This document shows positions 45,600 to 64,000 of a DNA stretch of 64,000 bases, in pieces. Below the pieces are notes generated by a model. It ran no database searches. It saw nothing but the letters and a program-made list of their open reading frames with translations, and was not told the origin of the DNA. Position 1 is the first letter of the stretch, and the number at the start of each line of letters is the position of its first letter. The stretch is from Nitrospinales bacterium (GTDB taxonomy: Bacteria; Nitrospinota; Nitrospinia; Nitrospinales; VA-1), in the NCBI GenBank assembly GCA_965223345.1, contig CBDCWG010000001.1, positions 190,846-254,845 of the forward strand, in the 5' to 3' direction. The position numbers were made by a program, and so were the translations under genes.

Positions 45600-45677
45600 A
45601 GATTCGCAGTGTTCCAGTGGGAGATGGATTCCATTATATCAGATGGCCGCCGGGATTTGGGGCCGGGGAGGGCCGGT

Positions 45678-45968
45678 TCAGCCCCCCGAAACCGATTGCA
45701 CGATGGTCAGGCTGTCGCCGGATTTGAGGGGTGTGTCCGTCTGTTTCAGCCAGCGGGTGTTTTCCTCGTTGAGAAAAAACAGCACATGCTGGCGCGGCGC
45801 GCCGGATTCGTCGAAAAGATGCACCCTGAGCAGCGGATAGCGATCGAGCAGGTGTTCGAGGCACCGGTTGAGGGTGTCCGCCTCGATCTCGACGCGCGAG
45901 CGGCCTTGCGTGCAGTGGGTCAGCAGACTGGGAAGATGCACCGGGATGCGCGGCATGGTTCGCTTCAT
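45678..45968 (-). CDS. MoaD/ThiS ubiquitin-like protein
   Basis: Beta-grasp length, C-terminal VSGG; ATGA-coupled to upstream propeller gene. Confidence 0.92.
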   Translation of the reverse strand: MKRTMPRIPVHLPSLLTHCTQGRSRVEIEADTLNRCLEHLLDRYPLLRVHLFDESGAPRQHVLFFLNEENTRWLKQTDTPLKSGDSLTIVQSVSGG

Positions 45969-47047
45969 TCCAGCCTGAGGGCCGATACGCAGTAGATCCT
46001 CGGAAACGCGTGCGGCAGGCTCTGCCAGTGCTCGCCTTCATCGGCGCTGGTGTACAGCGTGCCGCCCGTGGTGCCGAAATAGACCCCGCATGGGTCCTCG
46101 GCGTCGGTGGCCAGCGCGTGGCGCAGCACCGAAACGTAACCGGTTTCGGGAAACCCGTTCGTCAGCGCCTGCCAGGAATCGCCCGCATCGCTGGAACGGT
46201 ACACAGCGGGTCGCCCGTTCGGGAAAAACCGGTATTCGTCGCTCTCGAGCGGCGCCACGTACAGCGTCCCCGGCCTGTTGGGATGCACGGCCATGGGAAA
46301 TCCGAACGAAGAGGGCAGGCCGTTTTCGATGCGTTCCCAGGAGTCGCCGCCATCCAAGCTGCGGAACACGCCGCGGTGGTTCTGCTGGAACAGCCGCCGG
46401 GGATTTTGGGGGTCCATCACCAGCCGGTGCACGCAGCGGCCGATGTCTTTGTGCGTTTCCATCTCCAGCGCCGCCATCACCCCCTGGTTTTTGCTGTGCC
46501 AGGTCGCGCCGCCGTCGTCGCTGCGGAACACCCCCACCGCCGAAATCCCCACCCAGATGCGGTCCGCGTTGTCCGGGTCGATCAGGATCGAATGGCAGCA
46601 CAGGCCGCCTGCGCCGGGCACCCACTCGCTGCGCGTGGCGTGGCGCGAGAGGCCGGAAAGTTCCTGCCAGTGCAACCCGCGATCGCGCGAGACGAACAAT
46701 CCCGCCTCGTCCACCCCGGCGTACAACGTGTCGGGCTGGTCTTTGGGGCCGGGGACGACGGTCCACACGTTGTTGAGCTTGAAACCGGAGTCCGCATCGT
46801 AGCTTGGCCCGTGCTGCACCTGTTCGAAGTGCCCGCCCAGATCGCGTGAGATGTGCAGGGCGGGGCCGTACACGTCGTGCCCGACCGCGGCGTACAGCGT
46901 CGGCTCGGACCGCTGATCGAGCATGAGGTCGAACACCTTCCAGCCCTTGAGAAACGGCCCGCGCAGTTGCCAATCCTTGCGTCCGTTTTGCGACTCCAGC
47001 AGAAAACCGCCTTTGTCGGTGCCGATGAAAATCCCGTGTCTGGCCAT
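45965..47047 (-). CDS. BNR/Asp-box beta-propeller protein (sialidase-like)
   Basis: Repeated SxDxGxxW Asp-boxes; GGLCCHS and GRCVH motifs; start refined to MARHGIF. Confidence 0.9.
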   Translation of the reverse strand: MARHGIFIGTDKGGFLLESQNGRKDWQLRGPFLKGWKVFDLMLDQRSEPTLYAAVGHDVYGPALHISRDLGGHFEQVQHGPSYDADSGFKLNNVWTVVPGPKDQPDTLYAGVDEAGLFVSRDRGLHWQELSGLSRHATRSEWVPGAGGLCCHSILIDPDNADRIWVGISAVGVFRSDDGGATWHSKNQGVMAALEMETHKDIGRCVHRLVMDPQNPRRLFQQNHRGVFRSLDGGDSWERIENGLPSSFGFPMAVHPNRPGTLYVAPLESDEYRFFPNGRPAVYRSSDAGDSWQALTNGFPETGYVSVLRHALATDAEDPCGVYFGTTGGTLYTSADEGEHWQSLPHAFPRIYCVSALRLE

Positions 47048-47281
47048 CGTGCGCGCATCCTGAAAATGAGTGAAAACAGCGACCTCAATCCTAACACGCA
47101 ACGCGGTGCAAAAAGAACGGGATTCCCGTTTGCGGGCCGTGCACAAACAGCCGGTTCCGTTCGGTCGCAGGGGGCACGTGAAATGGCTGAATTTTCATGG
47201 TTTTTTTGAGGCCCGGCCGCGAGGCGTCAAAGCGGCGTGCCAGCATCGTCTTCCCGCTAGCCGCGATGTGTTTTGATCTGC

Positions 47282-47309
47282 TTGAAATTCAATAGATTAT
47301 TGCTATGAT
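47282..47309 (+). promoter_or_regulatory. Candidate promoter of the 228-aa hypothetical gene
   Basis: TTGAAA-16-TATGAT with extended TG. Confidence 0.55.
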
Positions 47310-47358
47310 AGTAAGGATTGGCCCGATTCCTGTATCTCCAACACACAACAGGTGATTT

Positions 47359-48045
47359 ATGGCCGAAAAATTCACACATCTGGACAGCGGTGACAGCGAC
47401 ACCACCGAATCGTTCTTTTCCGACCAGCTGTTGAAAGCGCGCATCGAGGCTGGGCTGGAATCGAACGCAGGCTACGACCCGATCTTCGAGGAAGGCCGCA
47501 GCGAGGAATGGAAGGAGCGGCACTGGAAGCAGGTCAAGGCCAACGACCTCAAATACGACGAGGACGTGAACCAGTATATCACCCTCACTCTGGCGGACCT
47601 CGCCAACCCGCAATCGCTTTCCCTCATCCATAAATACGTGGTCGGTCTCGATGCGGACGTCGGCAAAATCGCCGTCCAGCAGGAACAGACCGCCATCCGG
47701 TATTTTCTCTACAAGATCAACGCGGATTTTCTGCTGCTCAACCTGGGGCTGTTCAACCCGGACGGCAATGTGATGGGAGAGGCCTATTTCGACAAAGGCG
47801 AGTCCTACTATTACAGCGCCGCCACCAGCCTCAAAAAAGTGGAAGGCGGGCGTTCCGGCACCTCCGACGTGCTGGAGAAGCTGGCCAACCAGTTCAAAAA
47901 ATACGTGGTCATCCTGAGGCAGATGAAAAACTCCGCCGACAATTATTTCAGCTTTCACTTTAAAGTTTCCGACCTTGAGATCCGTTCGCTCGAGGAAACC
48001 CTGAGCTTCGAAGTGCGCAGGAAAAACGGCCCCGGTCCCGTCTGA
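47359..48045 (+). CDS. Hypothetical soluble, predicted helical protein
   Basis: 228 aa, host codon bias, AGGTG SD; YKINADFLL, GESYYYSA motifs. Confidence 0.75.
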   Translation: MAEKFTHLDSGDSDTTESFFSDQLLKARIEAGLESNAGYDPIFEEGRSEEWKERHWKQVKANDLKYDEDVNQYITLTLADLANPQSLSLIHKYVVGLDADVGKIAVQQEQTAIRYFLYKINADFLLLNLGLFNPDGNVMGEAYFDKGESYYYSAATSLKKVEGGRSGTSDVLEKLANQFKKYVVILRQMKNSADNYFSFHFKVSDLEIRSLEETLSFEVRRKNGPGPV

Positions 48046-48101
48046 CCGGCGGCCGCTTCGGACCCTCCGTCCACCCCAAACCACTTTTCCTTTAACAACG
48101 G

Positions 48102-48995
48102 ATGCACCTCTCCGGCCGAAAAAAAACACAATGGGCGGTCTTTTTGGCCGCCTGCCTGCTGTTTCTGGGCGGCGGCAAGCTGCTGATGGTGTGGGAGGAG
48201 AGTGGCTTTTTTGCGCGGATCCCGCCGTATTCCAATTCGCAGGTGCAATGGACGCGGGTGAACGCCTGGATGCAAGACAAAAAAGCCGTCCCCCTGCATG
48301 TGGTGCCCGATCCTGAGGTGCTGGCGGCCATCCGCGCGATCGTGCGTCCGGCCGGCGTTTCCAGGGAAACGCTGCTCAAAAACGTCATGCGCTTCGTGCA
48401 CGACAATTCCATCCACAAGATCGACGCCGAGCATCACACCTACGCGTTCAAAACCGATGCGGTCCTCAGCATGCTGTTGGCCGTCCAGCGCGGCGAGTCC
48501 GGGCACAAACCGCATCTGTCCTGCGGCTCGCGCTCCTATGCCATGAAAGGCATCCTCGACGATCTGGGAATCTCCTCCCGCCTGGTGCAGATTTTTTCCA
48601 GAGACTACAAGCGGATGGAGGGCCACCGTTTTCTGGAGGTCTATGATCCGGAGTCTGCGGCCTGGGAAGCCTGGGACCCCGATTTCAACGTCACCTACGT
48701 GGACGCGCAGAGTGGAGCGCCTGTGGACGTGTTGAGCCTGCTGTTTGCCAAACCCGGACGCGTCGTTCCGGTGCGCGGCGATGTCAAAGGTTGGAACGAA
48801 ACCGGCACCGCACACCTGCGCGAGCATTTTTTGCAGGCCGTCCTGTTCGAGGCGCTGACGCTGGACGGCCGGCGTCAGTTTCTGCTGGTTGCGCAAAAAA
48901 ACCGCTTCCCGCCGGACACGGTCTTTACAGGCGGCGAGACCACCCAGCAGTGGTTCGATCAGCGCTTCGGAAACCCCGTGACCCTCCGGTTTTAA
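48102..48995 (+). CDS. Membrane-anchored transglutaminase-like protein
   Basis: N-terminal TM; putative triad LSCGSRS, GHRFLEVY, WDPD. Confidence 0.7.
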   Translation: MHLSGRKKTQWAVFLAACLLFLGGGKLLMVWEESGFFARIPPYSNSQVQWTRVNAWMQDKKAVPLHVVPDPEVLAAIRAIVRPAGVSRETLLKNVMRFVHDNSIHKIDAEHHTYAFKTDAVLSMLLAVQRGESGHKPHLSCGSRSYAMKGILDDLGISSRLVQIFSRDYKRMEGHRFLEVYDPESAAWEAWDPDFNVTYVDAQSGAPVDVLSLLFAKPGRVVPVRGDVKGWNETGTAHLREHFLQAVLFEALTLDGRRQFLLVAQKNRFPPDTVFTGGETTQQWFDQRFGNPVTLRF

Positions 48996-49059
48996 AGGCG
49001 TTGACGTTCCCACCCGCCACTCTGTCTCCCGATCCCTCCTGATCCACAGAAGCCATCCA

Positions 49060-49089
49060 TTGAAAAACTGGCGCGGGGTGCGCTATAAT
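49060..49089 (+). promoter_or_regulatory. Candidate promoter of hybrid kinase gene
   Basis: TTGAAA-18-TATAAT. Confidence 0.5.
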
Positions 49090-49189
49090 ATATTCATGTG
49101 TTTTCTATGTAAATTAATAGTCGAGAGCAACCCGAAACAGAAACGACCGCAAAACACCCCGATACGATACGGCAAACGGCCATCCCGCA

Positions 49190-50434
49190 ATGATCATCTC
49201 CGACGAAGACTTGAAGAAGGCCCGTATTCTGATCGTTGACGATCAGGCGGCCAACGTGCTCCTCTTGCAGCAGTTTCTCAAGCAGCGCGGATTCACCCAG
49301 GTGAAGAGCACCGAGGATTCCCGCCAGGCCGCCGCGCTGTACAGGGAGTTCGATCCGGATCTCGTACTTCTCGATCTGAACATGCCGCATCTGGACGGAT
49401 TCGCCGTGATGCAGCAGCTCAGGGAAATCGAAAAGGACAACTACGTGCCCGTGATGGTGTTGACCGCCCAGACGGATCAGGAAAACCGTCTCAAGGCGCT
49501 GGAGGCGGGGGCGAAGGATTTTTTGAGCAAACCGCTCGATTTTGCGGAAGTTTCACTGCGCATCCGCAACATCCTCGAGATCCGCCTGCTCAACAACCTG
49601 CTCAGCGAGTCCAGGCAGTTTTTTGAGATCAAGGCGCGCGAGCGGGCCGTGGAATTAATCAGCAAGGACGAAGCCCTGAACGAGGAGATCAGCAGCCGCA
49701 TGCTGGCGGAGCGGGAGAACAAGGGCCTGGCCGAACAGTTGGAGATGAAAAACCAGGAATTGAACGATTTTTTCTACGCCGCCTGCCACGACCTCAAGGA
49801 GCCCTTGCGGAAAATCGTTTCCTTCGGCGGCATGCTGCAGTCTGCGTTGAACGGGGCCGAAGGGAAAGAGGCCGGATATCTGGACCGGCTGGATCATTCG
49901 GTGGGAAGGATGCAGAGTCTCATCGACGATCTGATCCTTTTTTACGAATTTCACCGCAAAAAAAGCGCGTTCCGCTCGCTCGACCTCAATCCGCTGGTCG
50001 AAGCGCTGATCGCCGAGCTCACAGCAGGCGATACCGAGTCAGCGAACCGGGTGGAGAAAAAAACACTCCCCACCCTGGAGGCGGATGCGGAACAGATCGG
50101 CCTGCTGTTCAAGCATCTGATCGCCAACGGGCTCAAGTTTCATGCCCCCGGAAGCCCCTCGAAGGTCTGGCTGGAGGGCCAGTCCCTCGGCAACGGATTC
50201 TGGAAAATCGGCGTGCGCGACGACGGCATCGGCTTCGATCCCAAATACATCCCCACTGTGTTGAAACCGTTCAAGCGCCTGAACACGAAAGATCAATATC
50301 CCGGCAACGGGATGGGGCTGGCCTACTGCCGGCAGGTGGTGTTCAACCACGGGGGAACGCTCAAGATCATCAGCGCGCCGGGGCAGGGCACCAAAGTCGA
50401 GATCGTCCTGCCCGAAACGCAGAGACCGCAATGA
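49190..50434 (+). CDS. Hybrid receiver-histidine kinase
   Basis: REC (ILIVDD, LLDLNMP, SKP), H-box CHDLKEPLR, NGLKF, DDGIG, GNGMGL. Confidence 0.92.
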   Translation: MIISDEDLKKARILIVDDQAANVLLLQQFLKQRGFTQVKSTEDSRQAAALYREFDPDLVLLDLNMPHLDGFAVMQQLREIEKDNYVPVMVLTAQTDQENRLKALEAGAKDFLSKPLDFAEVSLRIRNILEIRLLNNLLSESRQFFEIKARERAVELISKDEALNEEISSRMLAERENKGLAEQLEMKNQELNDFFYAACHDLKEPLRKIVSFGGMLQSALNGAEGKEAGYLDRLDHSVGRMQSLIDDLILFYEFHRKKSAFRSLDLNPLVEALIAELTAGDTESANRVEKKTLPTLEADAEQIGLLFKHLIANGLKFHAPGSPSKVWLEGQSLGNGFWKIGVRDDGIGFDPKYIPTVLKPFKRLNTKDQYPGNGMGLAYCRQVVFNHGGTLKIISAPGQGTKVEIVLPETQRPQ

Positions 50435-50449
50435 GGCCGCCGCAACGGT

Positions 50450-50962
50450 TCATTCGCATTCGGACATGAAACCGATTTTGCAGACCACGGGTTTTGTTTC
50501 CACGAACCGGTTCAACGTCGCATTCAGCCAGGTCTGCACCAGTTGATACAATTCCTCGTAGAAGGCGCTCAAATCCGAACGCTCGGCGTCCGGGATGGAA
50601 AAGCCTTTTTCCTTCTCGGAGGTTTTGATCAGAAACGCATCCCCTTCCTTTTTGATTCCCAGCACGATCAGCACCGGCTGCGCTGGAAAACCCGCCCCGT
50701 TGACGGGGATCAGAGTCATCTCGATGCCGATGTGCCAGTACATGTCCTGGCCCAGGAGAAGCGCTTCGCTCACAGGGTAGGTTTTTCCCGGCTCGGCTTT
50801 CTGCAGCGTGGGGATCACCCGGAAGCGGTCTTGCGGAACGGAAAAGAAGGTCGCCAGGCCCTCGACCAGAGCTTCTGCGAAATGAATGCAGTCCGCGTGG
50901 TAGTCGGAAAACCGCTGCCTGGAATCGGAATACAGAGTGCAAAGTGCATCGTATCTGGACAT
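50450..50962 (-). CDS. Hypothetical protein
   Basis: 170 aa, GGAGG SD, near-terminal KIGF motif. Confidence 0.7.
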   Translation of the reverse strand: MSRYDALCTLYSDSRQRFSDYHADCIHFAEALVEGLATFFSVPQDRFRVIPTLQKAEPGKTYPVSEALLLGQDMYWHIGIEMTLIPVNGAGFPAQPVLIVLGIKKEGDAFLIKTSEKEKGFSIPDAERSDLSAFYEELYQLVQTWLNATLNRFVETKPVVCKIGFMSECE

Positions 50963-51058
50963 GGAGAACCCCCTCCTCCCTGGGTGAAATTCAAGAAAAA
51001 GAACCGGGCGCGCGTGAGCCGTATTATCAAACCGTGTGTTGATGTCGTGGGAAAACCC

Positions 51059-53092
51059 TCAACCCTTACGCCGGATCGTGTACTCGCGGTTGACCGGGAA
51101 GGGGCGTTCGAGCACGCTCGTCTCTCCGGTGGACCAGCGCACTTCCACCCGCTCGACGGTTTCAAAACGGTCGAGCCCGAAATGCGCCACCGGCGCGTCG
51201 TTGGAGTGGAAGCCGCCTCCGGCCTTGATCTCGCGCATCTGGTGCCGTTCGCCTTCTGCGCCGTAGTGGAGGGTGATCACACAGCCGATGCAGAACCGGT
51301 TGCCCTTTGCGTCCCTAAGTTTGAAGGTGACGCTGTTTCCCTGTTCGTTGTTGTTGAAGTAAACCTTGAACGGGCCGTACTGCGTGTTGGCGACGATGTC
51401 GAGGTCCCCGTCCCGGTCGATATCGAGGTAGGTGTAGGACGAGCTGTGGTCGCGGTCTTTCAGGCCGAACGCCTCTTCGGCGGCGGCGAAGGTTTCGCCT
51501 TTCTGGTTGTGGAAAAAATTATTCGTGGCGAACTCCTGGGTGATCAGCACCCCGTTCACCACATACAGATCCTGCCATTCGTCGTTGTCCAGGTCCGCAA
51601 AGCGCGCGTTCCAGCTCCATTCGGCGGTGGTGACGCCCGCGCGTTCCGAGATGTCTTCGAATCCCGCACCGCTTGTGCCCATCAACAGAAGGTTCGACAG
51701 CGCCCGCTGCGGGATTTCATCGTCGCCGGTCGCAGCCACAGGCTCGGTCGTAAAAAATTTGCGGCACAGCGTCTGCCCGAGCGCGTGCCCGCGGTCGATC
51801 CTGTCGCACAGCGCGGCGTCCTTGCGTTCCGCCGCAAACAGCGCCAGCCGCGTCACCATGCAGTCCTTCACCAATCGGCGGTTCTCAAGGCGCACGCAGC
51901 GTTCCGAAACGTCCTGCTTTTCCGGATTGAGCAGCGTCACCAGCTGCACCAGATCGTGGCATTCCCCGCGCTCAAGCACACTCGCGCCCGAGTCGCAGAA
52001 TTCCCGCCCGGCCTCCCGCATGTCCTGCCCGAAAATATTGGACACCACGTCGATGCCTTTGGAGAAGCCGATGTTGGCGAGATAGATATCCGGGATCAGG
52101 TCGTTGTTGAAATCCCCCGTGTCGATGCTCATGGTGTTCTCGGTGCTGACCGGCAGCACGCCGTCCCGGCGCGTGATCTTTTTCAGCACCCCGTCGCCCG
52201 CGCCCTCGAAATAGGTGTCGGGCACCAGATAGTCGTTGCCCACCACCAGATCGGCGTTCGCGTTGCCGAGAAAATCCGACCACAGGATCGACTGCGTCTG
52301 GCCGGGGACGCCCGGCAGGGTTTTCAGCGTGAAATTCAGGTTGCGGTTGAGTACCAGTTGATCGATCGCGTTGGCGATCGGTTTGCGCGTCAGCACGCCG
52401 AGATGATAATTGCCGTTGGCGATGTCGAGGAACCCGTCGCGGTCGATGTCCGCGAACGCCGCGGCGTTGGTGAGCAGAACGTCGCCGTTGGGCACCCGCA
52501 GCACGCGCTTGTCTTTCCCTTCGGCAAGCGGGTTGAGGATGAGAAAGTTGCCGGTCTCGAACGTGGTCAGGAAAACGTCCAGCCAGCCGTCGTTGTCCAG
52601 GTCCACCAGCGCGATGTGGATGCCCTCCTGGCCGATGTCGGTTTTGAGATCCCAGCGCCATTGTTTGAAAGCCTTGCCGTCGATGTTCTGATACAGCGCA
52701 AACCCCCGGTCGGTGGCCACCGCGATGTCCGTCCAGCCGTCGCCGTCCACATCGCCCGAGGCGATGCCGCGGCCGAAGAAAAACGGATCGAAAAAGTTCT
52801 GTGGCGTCAGCTCGTTCCAGTAGCCGATGCCGATTTCAGGCGCGAGAATTTTTGTGAAGGGCAGCGGGCCGGTTTTTTGCCGGGCTTGATGCGGAGTGAA
52901 AGCCACCGAAATTCCGTCCGCCGTGAAAAAATCCTGGCTCGGCAGGGCGGTGGTCGGGTGGGGCGTGTCCGATGCGGCGGGCAAGGGTTCCACCTTGCGC
53001 TGCGACGGCGTCCCGGACGGCGCCGGGTCCGCGTCCGCCATCACCGCATCGTACTGCGACAGCCAGGCGATGTGGCGGTGCTCCGAGTAGGC
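51059..53092 (-). CDS. CRTAC1/ASPIC-UnbV FG-GAP repeat protein, 5'-truncated at junction
   Basis: FG-GAP repeats (GDVDGDGWTDI, DLDNDGWLD, DIDRDGFLDI), ASPIC/UnbV tail (HFGL...EVRW); residues upstream of ~53092 in the 742-aa ORF are off-frame phoX. Confidence 0.85.
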   Translation of the reverse strand, partial: AYSEHRHIAWLSQYDAVMADADPAPSGTPSQRKVEPLPAASDTPHPTTALPSQDFFTADGISVAFTPHQARQKTGPLPFTKILAPEIGIGYWNELTPQNFFDPFFFGRGIASGDVDGDGWTDIAVATDRGFALYQNIDGKAFKQWRWDLKTDIGQEGIHIALVDLDNDGWLDVFLTTFETGNFLILNPLAEGKDKRVLRVPNGDVLLTNAAAFADIDRDGFLDIANGNYHLGVLTRKPIANAIDQLVLNRNLNFTLKTLPGVPGQTQSILWSDFLGNANADLVVGNDYLVPDTYFEGAGDGVLKKITRRDGVLPVSTENTMSIDTGDFNNDLIPDIYLANIGFSKGIDVVSNIFGQDMREAGREFCDSGASVLERGECHDLVQLVTLLNPEKQDVSERCVRLENRRLVKDCMVTRLALFAAERKDAALCDRIDRGHALGQTLCRKFFTTEPVAATGDDEIPQRALSNLLLMGTSGAGFEDISERAGVTTAEWSWNARFADLDNDEWQDLYVVNGVLITQEFATNNFFHNQKGETFAAAEEAFGLKDRDHSSSYTYLDIDRDGDLDIVANTQYGPFKVYFNNNEQGNSVTFKLRDAKGNRFCIGCVITLHYGAEGERHQMREIKAGGGFHSNDAPVAHFGLDRFETVERVEVRWSTGETSVLERPFPVNREYTIRRKG

Positions 53093-53698
53093 CGACCGGG
53101 GTGTTGACGTGGATTCTGCGGTTGAGGCGGTCCCGAACGACCTGCCAGCGGCCGTTGCGCTCGGCCACCTCCACCACCGAGACGCCGTGAGCGGCCTGCG
53201 ACAGGCGCACGTCCTCCAACGACTCCGGGGCCTCCTTGCCAAGTACGTGGGTGTTGCGGCCGAACTCGTGGTTGATGCACAGCACACCGTGGTTGCGACC
53301 GAGCGGGTAGAACCACATGCCGTCGTGCCCGATTCCGATCTGCTTCTCCTGGTCGGCGGCTGACTTCGAGCCGTTCACATGCTCGGGGTAGGGCGCAAGG
53401 ATCGGCTCGCCCCAGGGATGAGCACCTGATACTCATAGTCGGCCGAGACAGCAGGCAGTGGGCCCGACCCGCCGGCGACCGGAACCGGGGTGAAGCCGAT
53501 GAGCGGCGCCCGGTGGCCGTTCTTCCGTCCGGGCCGTGCCCGGCCGGTCAGCGCCCCGGCCGTGCCTGCACCGAAGAAGATGGTGGCCCCGGTGGCCAAG
53601 CTTCCGCCGAGAACCTTCCGGCGCGAGATTCTGGCATACAGCACATCTTCAAACGGTCGATTGGCGGATGGGTTCGTCGCAATGTCGTCGACTGGCAT
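53093..53698 (-). pseudogene. phoX: PhoX-family alkaline phosphatase N-terminal fragment (frameshifted and truncated)
   Basis: Tat signal SRRKVL; QIGIGHDGMWF, LCINHE, AAHGVSVVE, NRRI; frameshift near 53415; AGGAGG SD. Confidence 0.85.
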
Positions 53699-53732
53699 AT
53701 CGTCCTCCTGGGTCACGTAGCCTCCGGGCTGG

Positions 53733-53798
53733 ACACTAAACAAGTGGGTTGTCGGCGGGGTTGCACGGAGGTGGACGCACTGTTGCCAGTGGCTGAAC
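53733..53798 (-). promoter_or_regulatory. Putative PHO-box array and -10 for phoX
   Basis: Minus-strand 11-nt units GTTCAGCCACT/GGCAACAGTGC/GTCCACCTCCG/TGCAACCCCGC, then TAGTGT. Confidence 0.5.
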
Positions 53799-53849
53799 CC
53801 TTGACTGACGCCCGGTTCCCATCCCGACGCAGGGATCGCCACCGTGATT

Positions 53850-53890
53850 GTTCAACTGGTGGTCACCCACCGGCCAACTCGGCCTAATGT
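53850..53890 (+). promoter_or_regulatory. Actinobacterial-type PHO box and -10
   Basis: 11-nt direct repeat units GTTCAACTGGT/GGTCACCCACC/GGCCAACTCGG, then TAATGT. Confidence 0.65.
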
Positions 53891-53942
53891 CCGCGTAGGG
53901 CGCCTCGGCTACAACCACAGGTATCTAGCTTCGGAGGCAGCC

Positions 53943-55575
53943 TTGAAACTGAATCAGTTCAACCTTGTGTCGCGGGCGATGGCGATACTTCTCACCTTGT
54001 CCTTGGTCACCTCGTCGCTCGTTGGAACGGCCGATGCTGCCGGCGGGGACTACTTCGAGCCGTTGGCCACGTTCGACGTGATGGCCGGCAACGGTTCGGC
54101 GGTGGCCGAGATCGTCGCATTTGCGGCAGGCGGCAATCTGCTGGTCTACACCGACGGCGACAATCAACAGATCGGTCTGGTCGACGTCGCTCGACTCGAC
54201 GACCCACAGGGCCTTGGGGTCATCGACATGCCCGGTGAACCGACGAGCCTGGCGACGACCGGGCCACTTGCGCTCGTCGCCGTGAACACGTCCGAATCGT
54301 TCGTCGAGCCGTCGGGCTCGCTGGTCGTGCTCAACCTCAGGTCGCGAAAGGTGTTGACGACGATCGACCTGGGCGGCCAACCCGACTCGATGGCCGTTTC
54401 ACCGGACGGCAAGACGGCGGCCGTGGTGATCGAGAACGAGCGCGACGAGGATCTGAACGACGGCCTCATTCCCCAACTGCCCGGTGGCGGGCTCGCCATC
54501 GTCTCGCTCAAGGGCAACCCGTCGACCTGGACGGTCACCATGGCCGATCTGTCCCCGGTGGCGGCGTCAGCGTTCGCCGGGTCCGACCTTGAGCCGGAGT
54601 TCGTCGACATCAACGCCGAAAACGAGGCGGTCGTCACCTTCCAGGAGAACAACCACCTTGCGGTCGTCGACCTGGGGTCCGGAAGCACGATCTCCCATTT
54701 CCCGGCCGGCGAGGTCTCACTTACCAACGTCGACACCGAAGAGGAGGATCTGATCAACCTCGACTCCGACATCACCAAACGTCGCGAGCCCGACGCGGTG
54801 GCCTGGATCGACGCCGATACCTTCGCCACCGCCAACGAAGGCGACTACGAGGACGCAAACGGTGAAGAGGGTGGAAGTCGCGGCTTCACCGTCTTCCACC
54901 AGGACGGAACCGTGGCCTACGAGTCGGCCGAAACGTTCGAGCATCTGCTGGTCGCCGCCGGCCACTACAACGAGGGTCGATCGGAGAACAAGGGTGTGGA
55001 GCCCGAGTCGGTCGAGGTCGGGGTGTACGGAAAGCGGACCTTGCTCTTCGTCGGGTCGGAACGTTCGAACGCCGTTGGCGTCTACGACGTAACCTCAGGC
55101 ACGCCGGTGCTGCAGCAGCTCCTGCCCACGGGCATCGGGCCCGAAGGGCTGGCCGCCAATCCCAAGCGGAAGCTCTTCGTCGCCTCAACCGAGGCCGACG
55201 AGGCCGACGACGGCATTCCCACGATGATCAACATCTACCGTCTCGGAGCCGCTGGCCCGTCCTACCCCATGATCTCCTCCGCGCCCGACGCCAACGGCAC
55301 CCCCGTACCGTGGGTGGCGCTGTCCGGTCTCGCTCCGGATCCGAGCGACCCCGATGTTGTGTATGCCGTGAGCGACTCGTTCCTGGCCGAAGGTTTCGTC
55401 TACACCATCGACGTCTCGTCGATCCCGGCCCTGATCATCGATCGCACGCAGATCACCGGTGCGACCGGGTCGCTCGACCTGGAGGGGATCGCTGTCGCTC
55501 CGGACGGAACCTGGTACCTGGCCAGCGAGGGCCGGGCCGGTGATCGGCCGAACCAGATCGTCGTCGTCGATCCGC
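53943..55575 (+). CDS. Secreted choice-of-anchor-I / esterase-like-activity-of-phytase protein, 3'-truncated at junction
   Basis: TTG start with GGAGG SD, signal peptide, GQPDS, IENE, EPE, TANEG, NKGVEPE, GPEG, then ALSGL..SD..DLEGIA..ASEG. Confidence 0.82.
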
Positions 55576-56612
55576 AGGCCGATGGGGAGCGAAGGATCGA
55601 GAACCTCGACGAATTGATCTACGATGCCGTCGAATTTGACACGGAACAGATTGACAACAAACCGCCAAGCGGCGAACCGCTAAGTGGCGAAGTGCCAAGT
55701 GTGATCGGCCGGGCGAACGGTTTCGGTGGCCTCGATGCGTATCTTGAGCACGTTGCTTTGGTCAGCGATGTCGACCGATGGCATGGCGAGGAGGACAGGG
55801 TCACTTTAATGACCCTACATGCGGCCAAGGGACTCGAGTTTCCATATGTCTTTATCGTTGGCGCCGAACAAGGGATCATCCCAAGTTCGTGGGCTGTCCA
55901 AGATGGTGATCCCAATGCACTGGAAGAAGAGCGTCGGCTTTTCTTTGTTGGGATGACCCGCGCCGAATCGGAGCTGCATATCAGTTTGGCACGACTCCGC
56001 GGCCAGCGTGGCGAATTGCGTCCGTCGGTCGGTAGTTCGTTTCTCATGGAACTGCCGCATGATGAACTCGATGTCGTCGAGTATGGGGACACGGGGCCTT
56101 ACCGAGTGATTGCCGAGTATGATGTCGACGACTCGGATGGGACCGATTGCGACGGGAGTGAACAAGCTCGCGAGCTGAATCGAAGCTTTGCGGCTGGTTC
56201 TCTCCCTCCCCGTCCTAGGCAATTGGATCGGTCCCGGGTCCCCTCGGTGCGTAATTCCTCGTCGCGCGCTGATACATTACCCTCCATTACAACCGCCGCC
56301 GCGATGTTGGGCCAACGGAGTGGGGCGGACGGAGAATCGGACGCGCCAGCGGAACATGATAGGGACGTGCCGTTGGGCCATGGTGGATCGGGGCTTCGCG
56401 CCCCTTCGTCACGTGGCAAGTCGGATCGTCGAGATGTCCCCCAGGTATCGGTCGGTGATACCGTGGTCCATCCCGAATTGGGGCCTGGTAAGGTCGTGCG
56501 GTTACGGCAAGGACTACGCGAAACGGCTACCGTGCAGTTTGCGCTCAGCGGGGAACAGAGAAGCTTCGTGGTGTCGGAAAGCTTATTGCGCGTTGTGCCA
56601 CGCAGTGAATAG
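55576..56612 (+). CDS. C-terminal part of UvrD/PcrA DNA helicase (5'-truncated)
   Basis: RIENLDEL, VTLMTLHAAKGLEF, EEERRLFFVGMTRA, SSFLMEL, Tudor-like VHPELGPGKV. Confidence 0.9.
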
Positions 56613-56627
56613 CGGTCGTCGGTCGGG

Positions 56628-58136
56628 GTGACGCGAGTGAGTGACTTCATCAAGATAGCCCAGCTTCGTAGCGCGGGGGAATTGCGGGATCGTTGGCGGC
56701 AGCTCGGCTGGGATGTACCGGTCGACGACGACATTTTGACCGCCGAGGATGCATCGCCCATCGCCACGCCGATGGCATTCGGCCGGTCGACGGTCGGCAA
56801 TCGTTGGTGCATCCATCCGATGGAAGGGTGGGATGCCAACCCCGATGGGAGTCCGTCGGAGCATACACTCCAACGGTGGAAGAAGTTCGGCGAGAGTGGT
56901 GCCAAATTGATTTGGGGTGGTGAGGCGGCTGCGGTACGGCGCGATGGACGCGCGAATCCCCGGCAGACACTCGGTACGTCCGACAATCGGTTCGGCTTGG
57001 AGCGGCTGCTTCAGACCACGCGTCAGTCGCATCGGGACTCCGGCTGGGATGACCGTGACCTGGTCGTCGGACTGCAGCTGACACATTCGGGGCGGTTCAG
57101 TGTCGATGGTGAAGGACGACGCGCGCCACGATTAGCCTATCACCACCCCTACCTCGATTCCCATTTCGGTATCGACCCTCATGATCCCAAGCTCGTTTGG
57201 GCCGACGGAGAATTACCGGAACTGATCGATGCCTACGTTACGGCCGCGCAGTTGGCTGCCTCAGTTGGCTATCAATTCGTTGACGTCAAGGCGTGTCATG
57301 GATATCTGCTACATGAGTTTCTCAGTGCTCGACTTCGGCCCGGTCCCTATGGTGGCGACTTGGTTGGTAGGTCGCGGCTATTACGGGAGATCATCGAAGC
57401 GATTCGGGCTGCCTGTCCCCAAGTCGACATTGGAGTACGTATCAGCCTGTTCGATCGGCCGCCATATGGACCGTCTGGCGAACCGATCGTGACCGACGGT
57501 GATCTCCCCTACCAATGTGGCTTCGGACTCGATCCAACCGCTCCCTCGACCATCGATCTGACCGAGCCACTTGCCCTGATCGAAATGTTGGTTGATCTGG
57601 GCGTGGTGGCGGTCAACGTGTCGGCCGGCAGTCCCTACTACTGCCCTCACGTGCAACGTCCGGCGGCCTTTCCACCCAGCGATGGCTATCCTCCCCCCGA
57701 GGATCCCCTGGTCGGCGTGGCGCGGCAACTTGTCGCGACACGCCAGGTAAAAAAGCGCTTTCCCGATTTGCCACTGGTCGGAACCGCCTACAGCTATTTA
57801 CAGGACTATGTGCCGCACGTTGCGCAGGCGATCATACGAGCAGGCTGGGCCGATAGCGTCGGCTTGGGAAGGATGGTTTTGTCGTATCCCGAGTTGCCAG
57901 CCGACGTTTTGCTGGGACGTACTTGGCAGCGGAAGCGGGTATGTCGTACCTTTAGCGACTGTACGACGGCGCCCCGGCACGGACTTGTTTCCGGATGCTA
58001 TCCGCTCGATCCTTACTACAAGTCGCTACCGGAAGCGAAGCAACTTAGGCAGGTCAAGGCCGTTCGGCGCAAGGAACGATGGATCTCCGTAACGACACGG
58101 CAGAGGGTGATAACGCCTTGGAAACGGCAACGGTGA
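56628..58136 (+). CDS. NADH:flavin oxidoreductase (Old Yellow Enzyme superfamily)
   Basis: HPMEGWD, QLTHSGR, DVKACHGYLLHE, C-terminal CRTFSDC..GC. Confidence 0.9.
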   Translation: MTRVSDFIKIAQLRSAGELRDRWRQLGWDVPVDDDILTAEDASPIATPMAFGRSTVGNRWCIHPMEGWDANPDGSPSEHTLQRWKKFGESGAKLIWGGEAAAVRRDGRANPRQTLGTSDNRFGLERLLQTTRQSHRDSGWDDRDLVVGLQLTHSGRFSVDGEGRRAPRLAYHHPYLDSHFGIDPHDPKLVWADGELPELIDAYVTAAQLAASVGYQFVDVKACHGYLLHEFLSARLRPGPYGGDLVGRSRLLREIIEAIRAACPQVDIGVRISLFDRPPYGPSGEPIVTDGDLPYQCGFGLDPTAPSTIDLTEPLALIEMLVDLGVVAVNVSAGSPYYCPHVQRPAAFPPSDGYPPPEDPLVGVARQLVATRQVKKRFPDLPLVGTAYSYLQDYVPHVAQAIIRAGWADSVGLGRMVLSYPELPADVLLGRTWQRKRVCRTFSDCTTAPRHGLVSGCYPLDPYYKSLPEAKQLRQVKAVRRKERWISVTTRQRVITPWKRQR

Positions 58137-61100
58137 CAGATCATTCCGCGCGCGATGTCGATCCGCGTGTGCGTCACATTGTCGTGACGCTGCGCGACGC
58201 CGTCGATTTTACTTCGACCCCATCGGTCGAACCGAATCGATCGTGCCGGCCCCTCGTCTTAGACAACGCCGTCGGAACCTCCGGCTTGGCGGTGCTGGCC
58301 GGTGCACTCGACCGGGCATATCGCCATCTCTTGGTGATTTGCAGCGACGCAAATCAAGCAGAGACATGCGCCGACGACCTTGCGCTCTTTTCGCCAATCG
58401 AACCCCGGTTTTTCCCGCTGCTCTTGGATGAGAGTGTTCGCGACGAGTCACTCGGACAGCGACTCCAAGTCGTCAAATGGTTGATGGGACGGCCAACGCG
58501 GGGCATGACGATCACACATGCTGCCGCTCTCATGCAGACCGTCCCGGGCGAGGGGCAACTGCGCCAGACCAGCCGAACCTTGGAGGTTGGTCAGTCGCTC
58601 GACCGCGACGAACTGGTGGAGTGGCTCGTTGCGGCGGGGTACCAACCGACCGCCGGTGTTGAGTTTCCCGGCGAGTTCGCTCAGCGTGGCGGATTGCTCG
58701 ATGTCTTTTCGGTCGATGCGATCGATCCAGTGCGCATCGAATTGTTTGGCGACGAGATCGAGAGCCTGCGTACGTTTCACGTCGAGTCACAAAGGAGCTT
58801 GCAACAATGCGAAGTTGTGGAGCTCATGTCAATGACTGAGTCGCGCGACATCACCGACGCTTCCCTGCTCGATTATCTGCCGGACGATACGCTGGTGGCG
58901 ATCGTCGAACCCGATAAGACGGAGGGGGAGGCGGCGGCCTATGAGATGCGGCATCCACAGGCCGAACATCTGATCGGCTGGCGGACTCTCTGCACGCAGT
59001 TCGAGCCGTTTGGGCTCTGTTTGCTCTACCAACTCGCCCCCCATGCCGACGGTGCCATGGTCCGTTTGCCGGTGGGTGGAGTCGAACGGTTCAGCGGCGA
59101 CTGGGCACACGTCAAGTCGGAGTTGCAACGCGCGGTGACCGATCTCGACCGGATCACGGTCGTTTGCCAAACACAGGGTGAACGGAAGCGGTTGGAGCAT
59201 CTATTTCGCGAGTCGGTTTCTGAACAAGCCAGCCGATTCGAGGTCGTTACGGGACGGTTGTCGGCCGGATTCCAATTGGCCGAACAGCGCGAAGTTATTC
59301 TCAGTAGCTCTCAGATGTTTCGCCGAAGCGAGACTTCACGCCGGCGCGTCAAACGGCATCGCGGCAAAGCGATACAGAGTTTTCTCGATTTGCGCGAAGG
59401 CGATTTGGTTGTCCATCTAGCGCATGGTATCGGACGATACCTTGGCCTCAAAGAGATCGAAAAGCAGGGGCAACAAGAGGAGCACCTGGAAGTCGAATTC
59501 CATGGGGGCACGCGCGTCTACGTCCCCGCGACACGAATTGATTTGGTACAGAAGTACGTCGGCGGACGCAAGGCTCGTCCAAAGTTGGCGCGAATCGGGG
59601 GGCGCGTGTGGCAGCAACAGAAAAAAGCTGCCGAACGGGCGGTCGAGAACTTAGCGCACGATCTGTTGGAACTCCAGGCCGAACGTGCCAGTCAGCCCGG
59701 AATCGGGTTTGGCGAGGATACCGAGTGGCAGCACGAATTCGACGCCGCGTTCCCGTATCAAGAGACGCCCGACCAGCTTGCCGCCGCCGACGATATCAAG
59801 GGAGACTTGGCATCTGGCCGACCGATGGACCGGTTGCTCTGTGGCGATGTTGGCTTCGGGAAGACAGAACTCGCAATGCGCGCCGCCTTCAAGGCAGTTG
59901 ACAGCGGGTACCAAGTCGCAATCTTGGCACCGACCACGATCCTGGTCGAGCAGCACTTCCACACGTTTACCGAGCGTATGGCCGAGTATCCGTTTCGGAT
60001 CGCCAAGTTGAGCCGGTTCTGTTCGGCTGCCGAGACGCGAAACGTGATCGCACAAGTAAAAGACGGAGGTATCGATATTGTGATCGGTACCCACCGTCTC
60101 GCCTCGAAAGATGTCGGCTTTCGCAACCTGGGGTTGCTGGTCATCGACGAGGAGCAGCGGTTTGGTGTATCGGTCAAGGAACGCCTCAAACAACTGCGTG
60201 CAAGTGTCAATGTGTTAACTCTGAGCGCCACACCGATCCCGCGCACTCTGCACATGTCGCTAACTGGCATGCGTGACATCTCAAATCTGGAAACGGCTCC
60301 GGAAGAACGCGTACCTGTCGAGACGCGTGTAACGCGTTGGAGCGATACTTTGATCCGCGACGCCGTACAACGCGAACTCGATCGTGGTGGACAAATCTTT
60401 TTCGTCCACAATCGAGTGCAAGACATCCAGTCCGTTGCTGCCAAGATCCAGCGAATCGTGCCAGAGGCGAAGATCGGGATTGGCCATGGTCAAATGCCGG
60501 AGCATGACCTGGAGGAGATTATGACCGATTTTATTGAGCACCGATTCGACCTGTTGCTTTCGACGACGATCGTGGAAAGCGGGCTTGACATTCCCAATGC
60601 GAACACGATGTTCATTGACGAAGCGCACCGCTACGGGCTGGCCGAACTTCATCAGCTTCGAGGGCGCGTTGGCCGGTACAAGCACCACGCCTATTGTTAT
60701 CTGTTGCTTGATCCCCGCGGATCGGTGACACCGGCGTCTGCACGAAGATTACAGGCAATTCAGGAGTTTAGCGCGATGGGGGCCGGTTTCGCCATCGCCA
60801 TGCGAGACCTCGAGATACGGGGCGCAGGTAATATTCTGGGGACACAACAGAGCGGTCACATTGCCACGGTCGGTTATGAACTCTATTGCCAATTGCTCGA
60901 AGCGGCGGTGCGGCGCCTTCGCAAGTTGCCACCCAAGGCGCGACCGGAGGTAATCGTTGATCTACCGGGTGTGACGTTGATCCCACGTGACTACGTCCCA
61001 GACCTCCGCGCTAAGATCGATCTCTATCGCCGGATCAATCAGATCGACAGCGACGATGCGATCCGACTCTTAGTGGACGAACTCGTTGATCGATTTGGGC

Positions 61101-61363
61101 CGGTCCCGCGTGCGCTAACGCGTCTGTTAGATCACGCCCGGTTAAAGCTCGACGCCGCCCTTTGGTCAATCGATACCGTGCGGTGGGAAGCGCCGTTCCT
61201 ACTCTTTGCCTTCCGTGATCCACAGCGGATCGATCAGCTTGTCCGTGCGCATCGAGGTCAACTCCGCCGGGTAGGAGGGCGAGAGCTCTGTTGGCAGCTG
61301 CCGCCAGATGCCACCGTTGACACGATTGGGCAGGCCGCGAAATCTGTGTTGCAGCCGGCATGA
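58133..61363 (+). CDS. mfd: Transcription-repair coupling factor Mfd
   Basis: RGGLLDVF, RID (VVHLAHGIG), MDRLLCGDVGFGKT, DEEQRFG, SATPIPRT, QLRGRVGR, TRG; start 58133 (GTGA overlap) or 58079. Confidence 0.97.
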   Translation: MTDHSARDVDPRVRHIVVTLRDAVDFTSTPSVEPNRSCRPLVLDNAVGTSGLAVLAGALDRAYRHLLVICSDANQAETCADDLALFSPIEPRFFPLLLDESVRDESLGQRLQVVKWLMGRPTRGMTITHAAALMQTVPGEGQLRQTSRTLEVGQSLDRDELVEWLVAAGYQPTAGVEFPGEFAQRGGLLDVFSVDAIDPVRIELFGDEIESLRTFHVESQRSLQQCEVVELMSMTESRDITDASLLDYLPDDTLVAIVEPDKTEGEAAAYEMRHPQAEHLIGWRTLCTQFEPFGLCLLYQLAPHADGAMVRLPVGGVERFSGDWAHVKSELQRAVTDLDRITVVCQTQGERKRLEHLFRESVSEQASRFEVVTGRLSAGFQLAEQREVILSSSQMFRRSETSRRRVKRHRGKAIQSFLDLREGDLVVHLAHGIGRYLGLKEIEKQGQQEEHLEVEFHGGTRVYVPATRIDLVQKYVGGRKARPKLARIGGRVWQQQKKAAERAVENLAHDLLELQAERASQPGIGFGEDTEWQHEFDAAFPYQETPDQLAAADDIKGDLASGRPMDRLLCGDVGFGKTELAMRAAFKAVDSGYQVAILAPTTILVEQHFHTFTERMAEYPFRIAKLSRFCSAAETRNVIAQVKDGGIDIVIGTHRLASKDVGFRNLGLLVIDEEQRFGVSVKERLKQLRASVNVLTLSATPIPRTLHMSLTGMRDISNLETAPEERVPVETRVTRWSDTLIRDAVQRELDRGGQIFFVHNRVQDIQSVAAKIQRIVPEAKIGIGHGQMPEHDLEEIMTDFIEHRFDLLLSTTIVESGLDIPNANTMFIDEAHRYGLAELHQLRGRVGRYKHHAYCYLLLDPRGSVTPASARRLQAIQEFSAMGAGFAIAMRDLEIRGAGNILGTQQSGHIATVGYELYCQLLEAAVRRLRKLPPKARPEVIVDLPGVTLIPRDYVPDLRAKIDLYRRINQIDSDDAIRLLVDELVDRFGPVPRALTRLLDHARLKLDAALWSIDTVRWEAPFLLFAFRDPQRIDQLVRAHRGQLRRVGGRELCWQLPPDATVDTIGQAAKSVLQPA

Positions 61364-61377
61364 TGCCTCCCTATAAT
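61349..61377 (+). promoter_or_regulatory. Promoter of PPIase gene
   Basis: TTGCAG-17-TATAAT. Confidence 0.6.
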
Positions 61378-61463
61378 CCGCCGCCACTCCGTAGAGTGCG
61401 GCGTGCCAACTGACGGTACGCCCGGAACAAGCTGAGCTTGCAATCGACGAGGGACCCGGACCG

Positions 61464-63086: not shown

Positions 63087-63255
63087 GTCAATTTCTATCG
63101 CATGCCATCGAAGGGTCCTGCCGTCGGTGGGCCCCCGCTTTTCGAATGGGACGGTGGCCATTACATTGCAGAGACTGCCGGTGCGGCGGATTCATGACAC
63201 GCGGACTTGCGGGTTCGACGTGCTGGACCGAATGGTTTCTGCGGGGGCGATGGGA

Positions 63256-64000
63256 ATGGCTGATGAACTGAAATCGGCGGGCAAATCGGTTTGGCATGTA
63301 GATGGTAAAGAGATTGAACTCCCACTGGTCGAAGGTTCCGAGGGAGAAAAGGCGGTCGATGTCTCTCGCCTCCGCGCCGGTAGCGGTTACGTAACTCTCG
63401 ACGAAGGTTACGTGAATACTGGTTCGACAACCAGTAGTATCACTTTTCTCAATGGTGAGTCAGGCGTTTTACGTTATCGCGGGTATCCCATTGAAACGCT
63501 GGCCGAGCATTGCGACTTCGTTGAGGTCTGTTATCTGCTGATCTATGGCGAGCTACCGACTCGCAGTGAAATCGAAGGCTTTCGCAGTTCGATTCGCCGG
63601 CATACGATGCTGCATGAAGATATGAAGCTGTTTTACAACGGCTTCCCGCGCGATGCCCACCCGATGGCGATCTTGTCTTCGGTCGTGAACGCGATGTCTA
63701 CCTTCTATCAAGATTCTCTCGATCCACACGATCCGGCGCAGGTCGAAGTTTCGATTCATCGTTTGATTGCCAAGTTGCCCACGATCGCAGCATATAGCTA
63801 CAAGAAGTCGGTGGGACAACCCTTCACCTACCCCAAGAACGATCTCAATTACTGCGAGAACTTTCTGCGAATGATGTTCGCTGTACCGAGCGAACCGTTT
63901 GAACTCGATCAAGACTTCATCAGCGCGCTTAATCTTTTGCTGATCGTGCACGCTGATCACGAACAGAATTGCAGCACATCGACTGTGCGGATGGTCGGTT
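63256..64000 (+). CDS. gltA: Citrate synthase (partial, runs off window; not in the ORF track)
   Basis: GYVNTGS, LRYRGYPIE, AHPMA, HADHEQNCSTSTVR. Confidence 0.95.
   Translation, partial: MADELKSAGKSVWHVDGKEIELPLVEGSEGEKAVDVSRLRAGSGYVTLDEGYVNTGSTTSSITFLNGESGVLRYRGYPIETLAEHCDFVEVCYLLIYGELPTRSEIEGFRSSIRRHTMLHEDMKLFYNGFPRDAHPMAILSSVVNAMSTFYQDSLDPHDPAQVEVSIHRLIAKLPTIAAYSYKKSVGQPFTYPKNDLNYCENFLRMMFAVPSEPFELDQDFISALNLLLIVHADHEQNCSTSTVRMVG

Follow-up and report, generated by a model that had tools for sequence, protein, structure and literature searches.

The mid-gene breaks in the window, by which we mean the whole 64,000-nt stretch of DNA analysed here, are assembly joins and do not represent a real biological feature. 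The window is part of contig C1 in a Nitrospinaceae genome assembled into 12 contigs, and C1 is an inter-genome chimera that probably arose during metagenome sequencing or assembly. Native Nitrospinaceae DNA (segment A) stops at window position 53,092, corresponding to C1:243,937. It is followed by 2,484 nt of Acidimicrobiales-like DNA with a GC content of 65% (segment B, 53,093 to 55,576) and by 34,329 nt of Pirellulales-like DNA (segment C), which runs from 55,577 to the end of the contig. The foreign DNA in C1 amounts to 36.8 kb in all (C1:243,938-280,750). An artefact is preferred over horizontal gene transfer (HGT) because four lines of evidence agree: short-read contigs stop following the window at 53,092, the interrupted host gene has its 5' part on another contig (C9), a relative of the same genus (G001) bridges contigs C7, C9 and C1 without the foreign block, and single-copy genes of the host are duplicated in the foreign tail. 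The first-pass annotation, which had proposed an artificial mosaic of Nitrospina-like, actinobacterial and planctomycete-like DNA with four broken genes, is upheld in all of these points, and both breaks lie no more than two bases from the places it had given. The four truncated genes encode a CRTAC1-like protein, PhoX, a choice-of-anchor-I/phytase-like protein and UvrD.

The Nitrospina-like origin of segment A is reflected in the loci obtained with its last gene, 27 of 36 being labelled Nitrospina, Nitrospinaceae, Nitrospinales or Nitrospinota, with one more labelled Nitrospirae. Its last gene (51,059 to 53,092, minus strand) encodes the 3' part of an FG-GAP/UnbV_ASPIC (CRTAC1-like) protein with the Pfam domains FG-GAP_3, FG-GAP and UnbV_ASPIC. 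The last 677 codons are kept, and approximately 350 N-terminal codons are absent from the window copy; open frames of the relatives comprise 1,022 to 1,079 amino acids, the full form consisting of an ArsP_1 permease followed by the FG-GAP and UnbV_ASPIC parts. The G001 orthologue, 81% identical, has an open frame of 1,039 amino acids with ArsP_1 at residues 115-365. The loss of the 5' end to a phoX fragment had been placed at about 53,090, and the join is found at 53,092|53,093 (junction 1), where the cut gene directly adjoins the PhoX fragment on the minus strand. Homology to G001 begins at the Ala codon 53,090-53,092, and homology to the closest PhoX locus (L202, from an Acidimicrobiales metagenome-assembled genome, MAG) stops at 53,094. 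The two sides meet seamlessly at junction 1; the origin of no base other than 53,093 is uncertain. Both joins are free of N's and of adapter-sized filler, and no more than one base is left unexplained by either side; a ligation chimera is neither supported nor excluded by such seamless joins.

Segment B begins with the 5' fragment of phoX (53,093 to 53,698, minus strand), which covers positions 41-138 of the 515 positions of the Pfam PhoX profile and carries a Tat-type signal. Approximately 200 of about 608 codons are present, the closest full gene (L202) encoding a protein of 608 amino acids that spans profile positions 5-515. The five best matches of the fragment (92, 80, 78, 74 and 72% identity, the first of them L202 at the amino acid level) all belong to Acidimicrobiales or Acidimicrobiia MAGs, which bears out the actinobacterial assignment. 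In the DNA alignment to L202 the window is one base short between 53,414 and 53,415, resulting in a frame shift. This single-base deletion and the presence of contigs as large as 3.37 Mb in the assembly would fit a long-read assembly.

The remainder of segment B is the 5' part of a gene on the plus strand for a secreted choice-of-anchor-I/phytase-like protein (53,979 to 55,576; Pfam choice_anch_I and Phytase-like, the latter at profile positions 2-104 of 284), from which about 200 C-terminal codons are missing. The gene was rejected as a taxonomic marker for segment B: its best matches (59-72% identity) are mixed, including Pseudomonadales, Desulfobacter, Actinomycetota, Nitrospirales and others, so that the gene alone does not place the segment. 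A phoX gene adjoining the choice-of-anchor gene was found in just one of 80 homologue loci (L123), and nothing in L202 matches 53,976-55,576; the gene pair of segment B is thus not confirmed as native anywhere.

The phytase-like frame had been described as running into UvrD at about 55,578, and this join is located at 55,576|55,577 (junction 2), in frame. The resulting open frame of 922 amino acids (53,844 to 56,612, plus strand) contains choice_anch_I, Phytase-like and then UvrD_C, with the Phytase-like match at residues 489-585 and the UvrD_C match (profile positions 234-348 of 350) at residues 581-716. For 66 of the 80 loci, the alignment to the homologue stops at or before residue 586 of the fusion, most often at 576, and in 63 of these 66 the homologue extends at least 150 residues further. 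The homology of segment B stops at residues 576-578 (55,571-55,577), and that of UvrD begins at residues 580-582 (55,581-55,587). The frame is preserved across junction 2 by chance, and the 922-residue "phytase-UvrD fusion" is not a protein.

Segment C starts with the 3' part of uvrD (55,577 to 56,612, plus strand), comprising the last 345 codons or so. Approximately 500 N-terminal codons are absent; in two loci from Pirellulales MAGs (L005 and L007), with frames of 827 and 858 residues, the alignment sets in at residue 502 or 518. Further genes on the plus strand (56,628 to 64,000) encode, according to Pfam, an OYE-type flavin oxidoreductase, Mfd, a SurA-like PPIase and citrate synthase. Planctomycetota account for each of the 23 Mfd loci ranked highest, most of these being Pirellulales, and gene order is kept, as expected for the planctomycete-like origin assigned earlier: the order UvrD-OYE-Mfd-SurA is common to L005 and L007, and among 74 loci Mfd has SurA as a neighbour in 29 and citrate synthase in six. 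The host carries its own copies of such genes on contig C12, a second full-length Mfd (C12:2,504,396-2,507,635) with 37% identity to the tail copy and a second citrate synthase (C12:2,925,192) with 57-59% identity. Single-copy genes of the host are therefore duplicated in the foreign tail at low identity (37-59% overall). Beyond the window, 17 long frames are listed for the tail (C1:254,002-280,584), and long open frames cover 95.7% of C1:254,001-280,750, which argues that segment C is not one noisy read.

Taxonomic best matches change abruptly within C1, and the best-fitting tetranucleotide model switches at both joins. The shifts in codon style noted by eye in the first-pass annotation are reproduced by codon counts. 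The A side has a GC3 of 0.688, with 9.2 CGA and 2.2 CTA codons per 1000 and AAA making up 59% of the Lys codons. GC content rises to 65.1% and GC3 to 0.834 in the middle part (722 codons), and the C side shows a GC3 of 0.631, with 17.8 CGA, 7.7 CTA and 5.5 TTA codons per 1000 and AAA accounting for 33% of the Lys codons. Bins of 500 nt were classified with four-mer models whose training sets came from other DNA. Between 44,001 and 53,000, 16 of 18 bins were assigned to A, one (46,501-47,000) to B and one (52,001-52,500) to C; all five bins of 53,001-55,500 were assigned to the Acidimicrobiales model and all 17 bins of 55,501-64,000 to the tail model. From C1:245,001 onwards, each of seven 5-kb bins scored 0.034 to 0.046, compared to a median of 0.019 and a 90th percentile of 0.029 on C12. 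Genome-wide, 19 of 1,485 bins of 2.5 kb were not A-like, and 14 of these form the contiguous tail of C1; as to further foreign blocks, only five scattered weak bins, on C12, were obtained. Since 244 of the 281 kb of C1 are Nitrospinaceae DNA, the whole contig was binned with the Nitrospinaceae genome.

The native continuation of the cut gene is found elsewhere in the same assembly. The N-terminal 199 residues of the match to the G001 orthologue (residues 16-214) correspond to C9:597..1 with 90% identity, and residues 366-1039 to C1:243,940..241,907. Contig C2 of G001 (630,007-670,000) is colinear with C7 363,162-377,301 (a contig end), then C9 5,117-20 and then C1 from 243,937 down to 222,522. 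Between the C9 and C1 matches, G001 has 475 nt without a match in the assembly, and it carries no foreign block. When 53,093-60,000 was used for a DNA search in 30 relatives, only matches to Mfd motifs of at most 238 nt were obtained, in 12 of the 30. The true chromosome continues from C1:243,937 through approximately 455 unassembled bases into C9 and on to the end of C7. In the assembly this end of C1 was joined instead to 2,484 nt of Acidimicrobiales DNA and then to 34.3 kb of Pirellulales DNA, probably by way of a chimeric molecule or read or of a misjoin made by the assembler at a weakly covered contig end.

Short-read contigs (Logan) were available from four public runs (X1-X4) of one study, representing at most two samples; they may derive from the source sample and are not independent replicates. 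Such contigs lose rare variants and are evidence of presence, not of absence. Of the words sampled from 51,500-57,500, 26-30% occur in the four runs; the A part makes up 26.5% of this stretch. Each of the four yields a contig that matches the window without a difference over 52,598-53,092 and then continues with 457, 272, 595 and 595 letters, respectively, unlike the window. Depths of the diverging contigs are 5.1, 2, 5.75 and 5.6, compared to 5.78, 2.9, 5.98 and 4.16 for the flanking contigs. The letters past 53,092 probably represent the missing part of the CRTAC1-like gene. Neither join is spanned in the Logan contigs of the four runs, which as such cannot show absence. No identical contig over 53,093-55,576 was found in these presence-only data, so that the assembly itself is the one witness to segment B in the sample. 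Segment C is covered, in the same presence-only data, by two 151-letter unitigs of run X1, one of which matches 55,577-55,724 exactly with its last three letters misfitting; the depth is about 2 in this run, and the segment was not seen in the three others. Other pieces of X1 on segment C (35-46 letters with two to four differences) were assigned to other organisms. Exact-pattern scans of metagenome contigs for the native continuations, with the 33 nt of A that precede junction 1 and with the 43 nt of C that follow junction 2, gave no match.

A different route to the same contig would be concatenation after assembly, in which separate contigs of 243,937 nt (A), 2,484 nt (B) and 34,329 nt (C) were glued without a spacer, whether in scaffolding, in gap closing or merging, or through a slip in file handling. 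This would be an artefact too, but made after assembly. Contigs usually end within genes, from which all four truncations would follow, and the joins without N's or filler are compatible with it. The A genome is truly broken at this point, as C9 starts approximately 455 nt further on, and the 2,484 nt of segment B are in the range of the other small contigs of the assembly (2,679-3,495 nt). However, segments B and C would first have to be binned with the Nitrospinaceae despite their clearly different four-mer composition, and the short-read depth of segment C, about 2 in a single run, differs. A sloppy binning or merging step should also leave more than the five scattered weak bins among 1,485 outside the C1 tail. 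Concatenation after assembly is thus considered a possible but rather improbable origin, and a chimera formed during sequencing or assembly is preferred.

A genuine insertion, in which a minority Nitrospinaceae strain would have gained more than 36.8 kb of Acidimicrobiales and Pirellulales DNA at once, through illegitimate joining guided by microhomology within the ArsP_1-ASPIC gene, would agree with the continuous sequence, the open frame preserved at junction 2 and a possible microhomology of 8/10 at junction 1 (as judged from proxies, with L202 representing B and the window representing A). This reading is hardly credible, however. The short-read contigs of all four runs apparently show the native uninterrupted form, at depths equal to the flank, and C1 never returns to Nitrospinaceae DNA and has its 3' partner on another contig. 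The block was not found among the 30 relatives searched, and its 34 kb are made up of housekeeping genes arranged as in Pirellulales, a second Mfd among them. Two donors of different phyla, each cut mid-gene, with neither an integrase nor a tRNA, repeats or a target duplication, match no known mobile element. The absence of an integrase, transposase or tRNA near the joins, remarked on earlier, holds: the window contains no tRNA gene, no repeat family links 53,093 to 55,577, and no integrase, recombinase or transposase domain (Pfam) was found in the 13 window frames scanned. Three of the 13 frames (47,359-48,045, 48,102-48,995 and 50,450-50,962) matched no Pfam family.

The block resembles a genomic island acquired by HGT in that it is compositionally deviant, has foreign best matches and lies next to native DNA. 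Unlike such an island, it is accompanied by no integrase, tRNA or flanking repeats and has truncated genes, of host and foreign origin, on both sides; there is no return to host DNA, the C-like tail reaching C1:280,000 and the host continuation lying on C9; its housekeeping genes duplicate single-copy genes of the host; and the uninterrupted native form of the locus is apparently found in reads, and also on another contig. The closer likeness is to inter-genome chimeric MAG contigs, the problem addressed by tools such as GUNC: abrupt changes of lineage within one contig, genes cut at the joins and good marker figures (here 94.45% completeness and 2.69% contamination despite 36.8 kb of foreign DNA) are common to both. 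C1 differs in joining three phyla with a very short middle piece (2.5 kb) and in that the join lies terminally on a large contig from what is apparently an assembly of long-read scale.

The finding matters for quality control only. Arguments from context across the joins had been called unsafe, and any inference on gene neighbourhood, operons, metabolism or HGT across window position 53,092 or 55,576 is indeed invalid. Equally invalid is any inference that relies on the Nitrospinaceae genome possessing what C1:243,938-280,750 encodes, namely PhoX, the choice-of-anchor/phytase-like protein, a second copy each of UvrD, Mfd and citrate synthase, and further proteins. The problem was not flagged by the standard marker-based figures. 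The native order of the contigs, C7 end, C9 reversed and C1 reversed from 243,937, could be used for repair of the assembly.

The mosaic of three sources at the 3' end of the window is an artefact and not a real biological feature. The contig involved (C1, 280,750 nt) extends 25.9 kb past the window end, the window being C1:190,846–254,845 on the plus strand (C1 position = window position p + 190,845), and belongs to the Nitrospinaceae assembly GCA_965223345.1 (12 contigs, 4.10 Mb, none of the 12 containing an N; rated 94.45% complete and 2.69% contaminated). Native DNA (segment A) meets an Acidimicrobiales-like middle piece (segment B) at 53,092|53,093 (junction 1), and B meets a Pirellulales-like tail (segment C), which reaches the end of C1, at 55,576|55,577 (junction 2).

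The replacement of the 5' end of a CRTAC1 gene by a phoX fragment at about 53,090, described in the first-pass annotation, was reproduced with open frames and Pfam. A CRTAC1-like frame with FG-GAP_3, FG-GAP and UnbV_ASPIC domains (51,059–53,287, minus strand) overlaps a PhoX fragment (52,836–53,378) on the same strand but in a different frame, which covers only profile positions 41–138 of 515; a PhoX N-terminus with a Tat-like signal is encoded at 53,375–53,842. From 53,092 downward the A-side gene encodes 677 aa with 81% identity to the same-genus genome G001, where the open frame comprises 1,039 aa and the extra approximately 365 N-terminal residues form an ArsP_1 permease domain. Of the Nitrospinales relatives searched (30 genomes), 25 have a match to the gene (26 of 31 with the host counted); in 18 relatives nearly the whole query is matched, in open frames of 1,022–1,079 aa. 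Homology to G001 starts at the Ala codon 53,090–53,092, and the PhoX fragment can be aligned with the Acidimicrobiales MAG locus L202, its closest relative (92% protein, 81–86% DNA identity), as far as 53,094; the single base 53,093 is clearly assignable to neither side. Since PhoX of L202 comprises 608 aa, about 400 C-terminal codons are absent from the window gene. Around junction 1 (53,083–53,099), the B continuation expected from L202, ACCTTCTCGG, agrees in 8 of 10 bases with A just past the join, GCCTACTCGG, which could be a hint of a microhomology-guided join, as judged from a proxy just 81–86% identical to B. The phoX sequence has one base fewer than L202 between 53,414 and 53,415, with a resulting shift of the PhoX frame; the protein there reads LIPGAS versus the expected LIPWGEP, and a run of C's adjoins. 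Either the base was lost through faulty sequencing or consensus calling where coverage was thin, or the donor gene is a genuine pseudogene.

The missing part of the A-side gene is located on another contig of the same assembly. The first 597 nt of C9 encode, on the minus strand, residues 1–199 of the cut gene (90% identity to G001); the piece matches ArsP_1 profile positions 44–136 and its frame runs off the contig end. Along 40 kb of G001, the host contigs align colinearly in the order C7 363,162–377,301 (contig end), C9 5,117–20 and, after 475 nt without a match in the host assembly, C1 from 243,937 down to 222,522. From this colinearity, the native chromosome runs from C1:243,937 to C9 and C7, and the further 36.8 kb of C1 are an appendage; read along G001, the order is the end of C7, C9 reversed, about 455 unassembled bases and C1 reversed from 243,937. 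The intact host gene is a fusion of approximately 1,030 aa, in which an ArsP_1-type permease domain precedes FG-GAP repeats and UnbV_ASPIC (51,059–53,092 plus C9:1–597).

At junction 2, a phytase-like esterase had been noted to run in frame into the C-terminal part of UvrD, and this was found again with open frames and Pfam. The fused frame (53,844–56,612, plus strand, 922 aa) contains choice_anch_I, Phytase-like and UvrD_C domains; Phytase-like profile positions 2–104 of 284 lie at residues 489–585, directly followed by UvrD_C positions 234–348 of 350 at residues 581–716. The fused frame was aligned with 80 loci encoding choice-of-anchor/phytase-like homologues. In 66 of them the alignment ends at or before fusion residue 586 (mode 576), and in 63 of these 66 the homologue extends at least 150 residues further; the remaining 14 alignments drift on to residues 588–624. 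UvrD homology to two Pirellulales MAG loci (L005 and L007) begins at fusion residues 580–582 (55,581–55,587), corresponding to residues 502 and 518 in their 827- and 858-aa frames. From these alignment ends and starts, the B gene lacks about 200 codons and uvrD about 500, and it is a coincidence that the two remain in frame. The genes 3' of the fused frame encode, by Pfam, an OYE-type oxidoreductase, Mfd, a SurA-like PPIase and a citrate synthase.

The proposed Nitrospina-like, actinobacterial and planctomycete-like sources were recovered by best matches and composition models. For A, the A-side gene retrieved 36 loci (52–61% identity), of which 27 carry a Nitrospina, Nitrospinaceae, Nitrospinales or Nitrospinota label and another one a Nitrospirae label. 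For B, the PhoX fragment retrieved 79 loci, the best five of which are all from Acidimicrobiales/Acidimicrobiia MAGs (92, 80, 78, 74 and 72%); the choice-of-anchor gene, with mixed phyla among its matches, does not by itself place B. For C, the top-ranked 23 of 74 Mfd loci are all Planctomycetota, mostly Pirellulales, and the highest best-segment identities (63–65%) are likewise to Pirellulaceae or Pirellulales. The gene order UvrD-OYE-Mfd-SurA, common to L005 and L007, supports a Pirellulales-type origin of C; in this set of 74, Mfd is adjoined by a SurA match at 29 loci and by a citrate synthase match at 6.

The reported shifts in codon style are borne out by counts. C1:1–243,937 resembles C12 and C7 (GC3 0.69–0.70, CGA approximately 9 and CTA approximately 2 per 1000 codons, AAA 54–59% of Lys codons); the corresponding tail values are 0.63, 17.8, 7.7 and 33%, and B has 65.1% GC and a GC3 of 0.834 (722 codons). 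The tetranucleotide distance to C12 is 0.014–0.023 in eleven 5-kb C1 bins starting at 190,001–240,001 and 0.034–0.046 in all seven from 245,001 (C12 itself: median 0.019, 90th percentile 0.029). Three composition models were trained on C12 (A), six Acidimicrobiales loci (B) and the tail beyond the window (C). In 500-nt bins, model A was best in 16 of 18 at 44,001–53,000, B in 5 of 5 at 53,001–55,500 and C in 17 of 17 at 55,501–64,000. Genome-wide, B or C was preferred over A in 19 of 1,485 2.5-kb bins, the C model being trained on the tail itself; 14 of these 19 are the contiguous C1:245,001–280,000. Five scattered C12 bins weakly prefer B or C with small margins (430,001–432,500; 1,487,501–1,492,500; 2,262,501–2,265,000; 2,877,501–2,880,000).

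Four public short-read runs, from one study and at most two samples, contain 26–30% of the sampled words of 51,500–57,500, a stretch of which A makes up 26.5%. In all four runs, a contig matches the window without differences over 52,598–53,092 and then extends by 457, 272, 595 and 595 letters not fitting the window, at depths similar to those in flanking A contigs (5.1, 2, 5.75 and 5.6 versus 5.78, 2.9, 5.98 and 4.16). Identical cover of B was absent from all four runs and that of C consisted of two 151-letter unitigs, both in run X1, assembled (Logan) contigs being proof of presence only; the match of one of them starts at 55,577, with 3 unmatched letters beyond.

An artefact rather than horizontal transfer, as already preferred in the first-pass annotation, is supported: the run contigs leave the window at 53,092, the missing gene piece is on C9, G001 is colinear without the appendage, host single-copy genes are duplicated at low identity, no mark of a mobile element was found in the window and the block was not found in the 30 relatives searched. 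Mfd and citrate synthase of the appendage share 37% (over nearly full length) and 57–59% identity, respectively, with the host single-copy genes. In agreement with the first-pass annotation, the window contains no tRNA gene, its frames scanned against Pfam no integrase or transposase domain, and no repeats pairing junction 1 with junction 2 were found. When 53,093–60,000 was compared as DNA with 30 relatives, the only matches were Mfd-motif matches of up to 238 nt, in 12 of the relatives. Long frames cover 95.7% of the clean tail (C1:254,001–280,750), and B has a single frameshift in its approximately 2.2 kb of coding sequence. Candidate origins of the join are chimerism of a molecule or read, misjoining by the assembler where the end had little coverage, and spacer-free merging at a later step. 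Interspecies chimeric contigs, of which this is an example, are a known fault of metagenome-assembled genomes; GUNC is described as detecting chimerism from whether contigs are homogeneous in lineage (PMC8201837), and a 2026 preprint gives such contigs for 444 of 640 near-complete MEGAHIT MAGs from CAMI data (10.64898/2026.10.15.759294). The finding is of value solely as a caution about this assembly and as a pointer to its repair.

Two further regions deviate in composition. The bin 46,501–47,000, in a BNR/Sortilin-type gene (45,965–47,146, minus strand), fits the Acidimicrobiales model slightly better; with a local GC content of 66% and host-like neighbouring bins, a GC-rich repeat domain is the probable explanation. 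Outside the window, C1:13,000–27,000 has 42% GC in a contig of 57.6% GC and the highest 4-mer deviation of C1 (0.068–0.069); it abounds in frames resembling membrane proteins and glycosyltransferases and has the look of a surface-polysaccharide island, not of another chimera.
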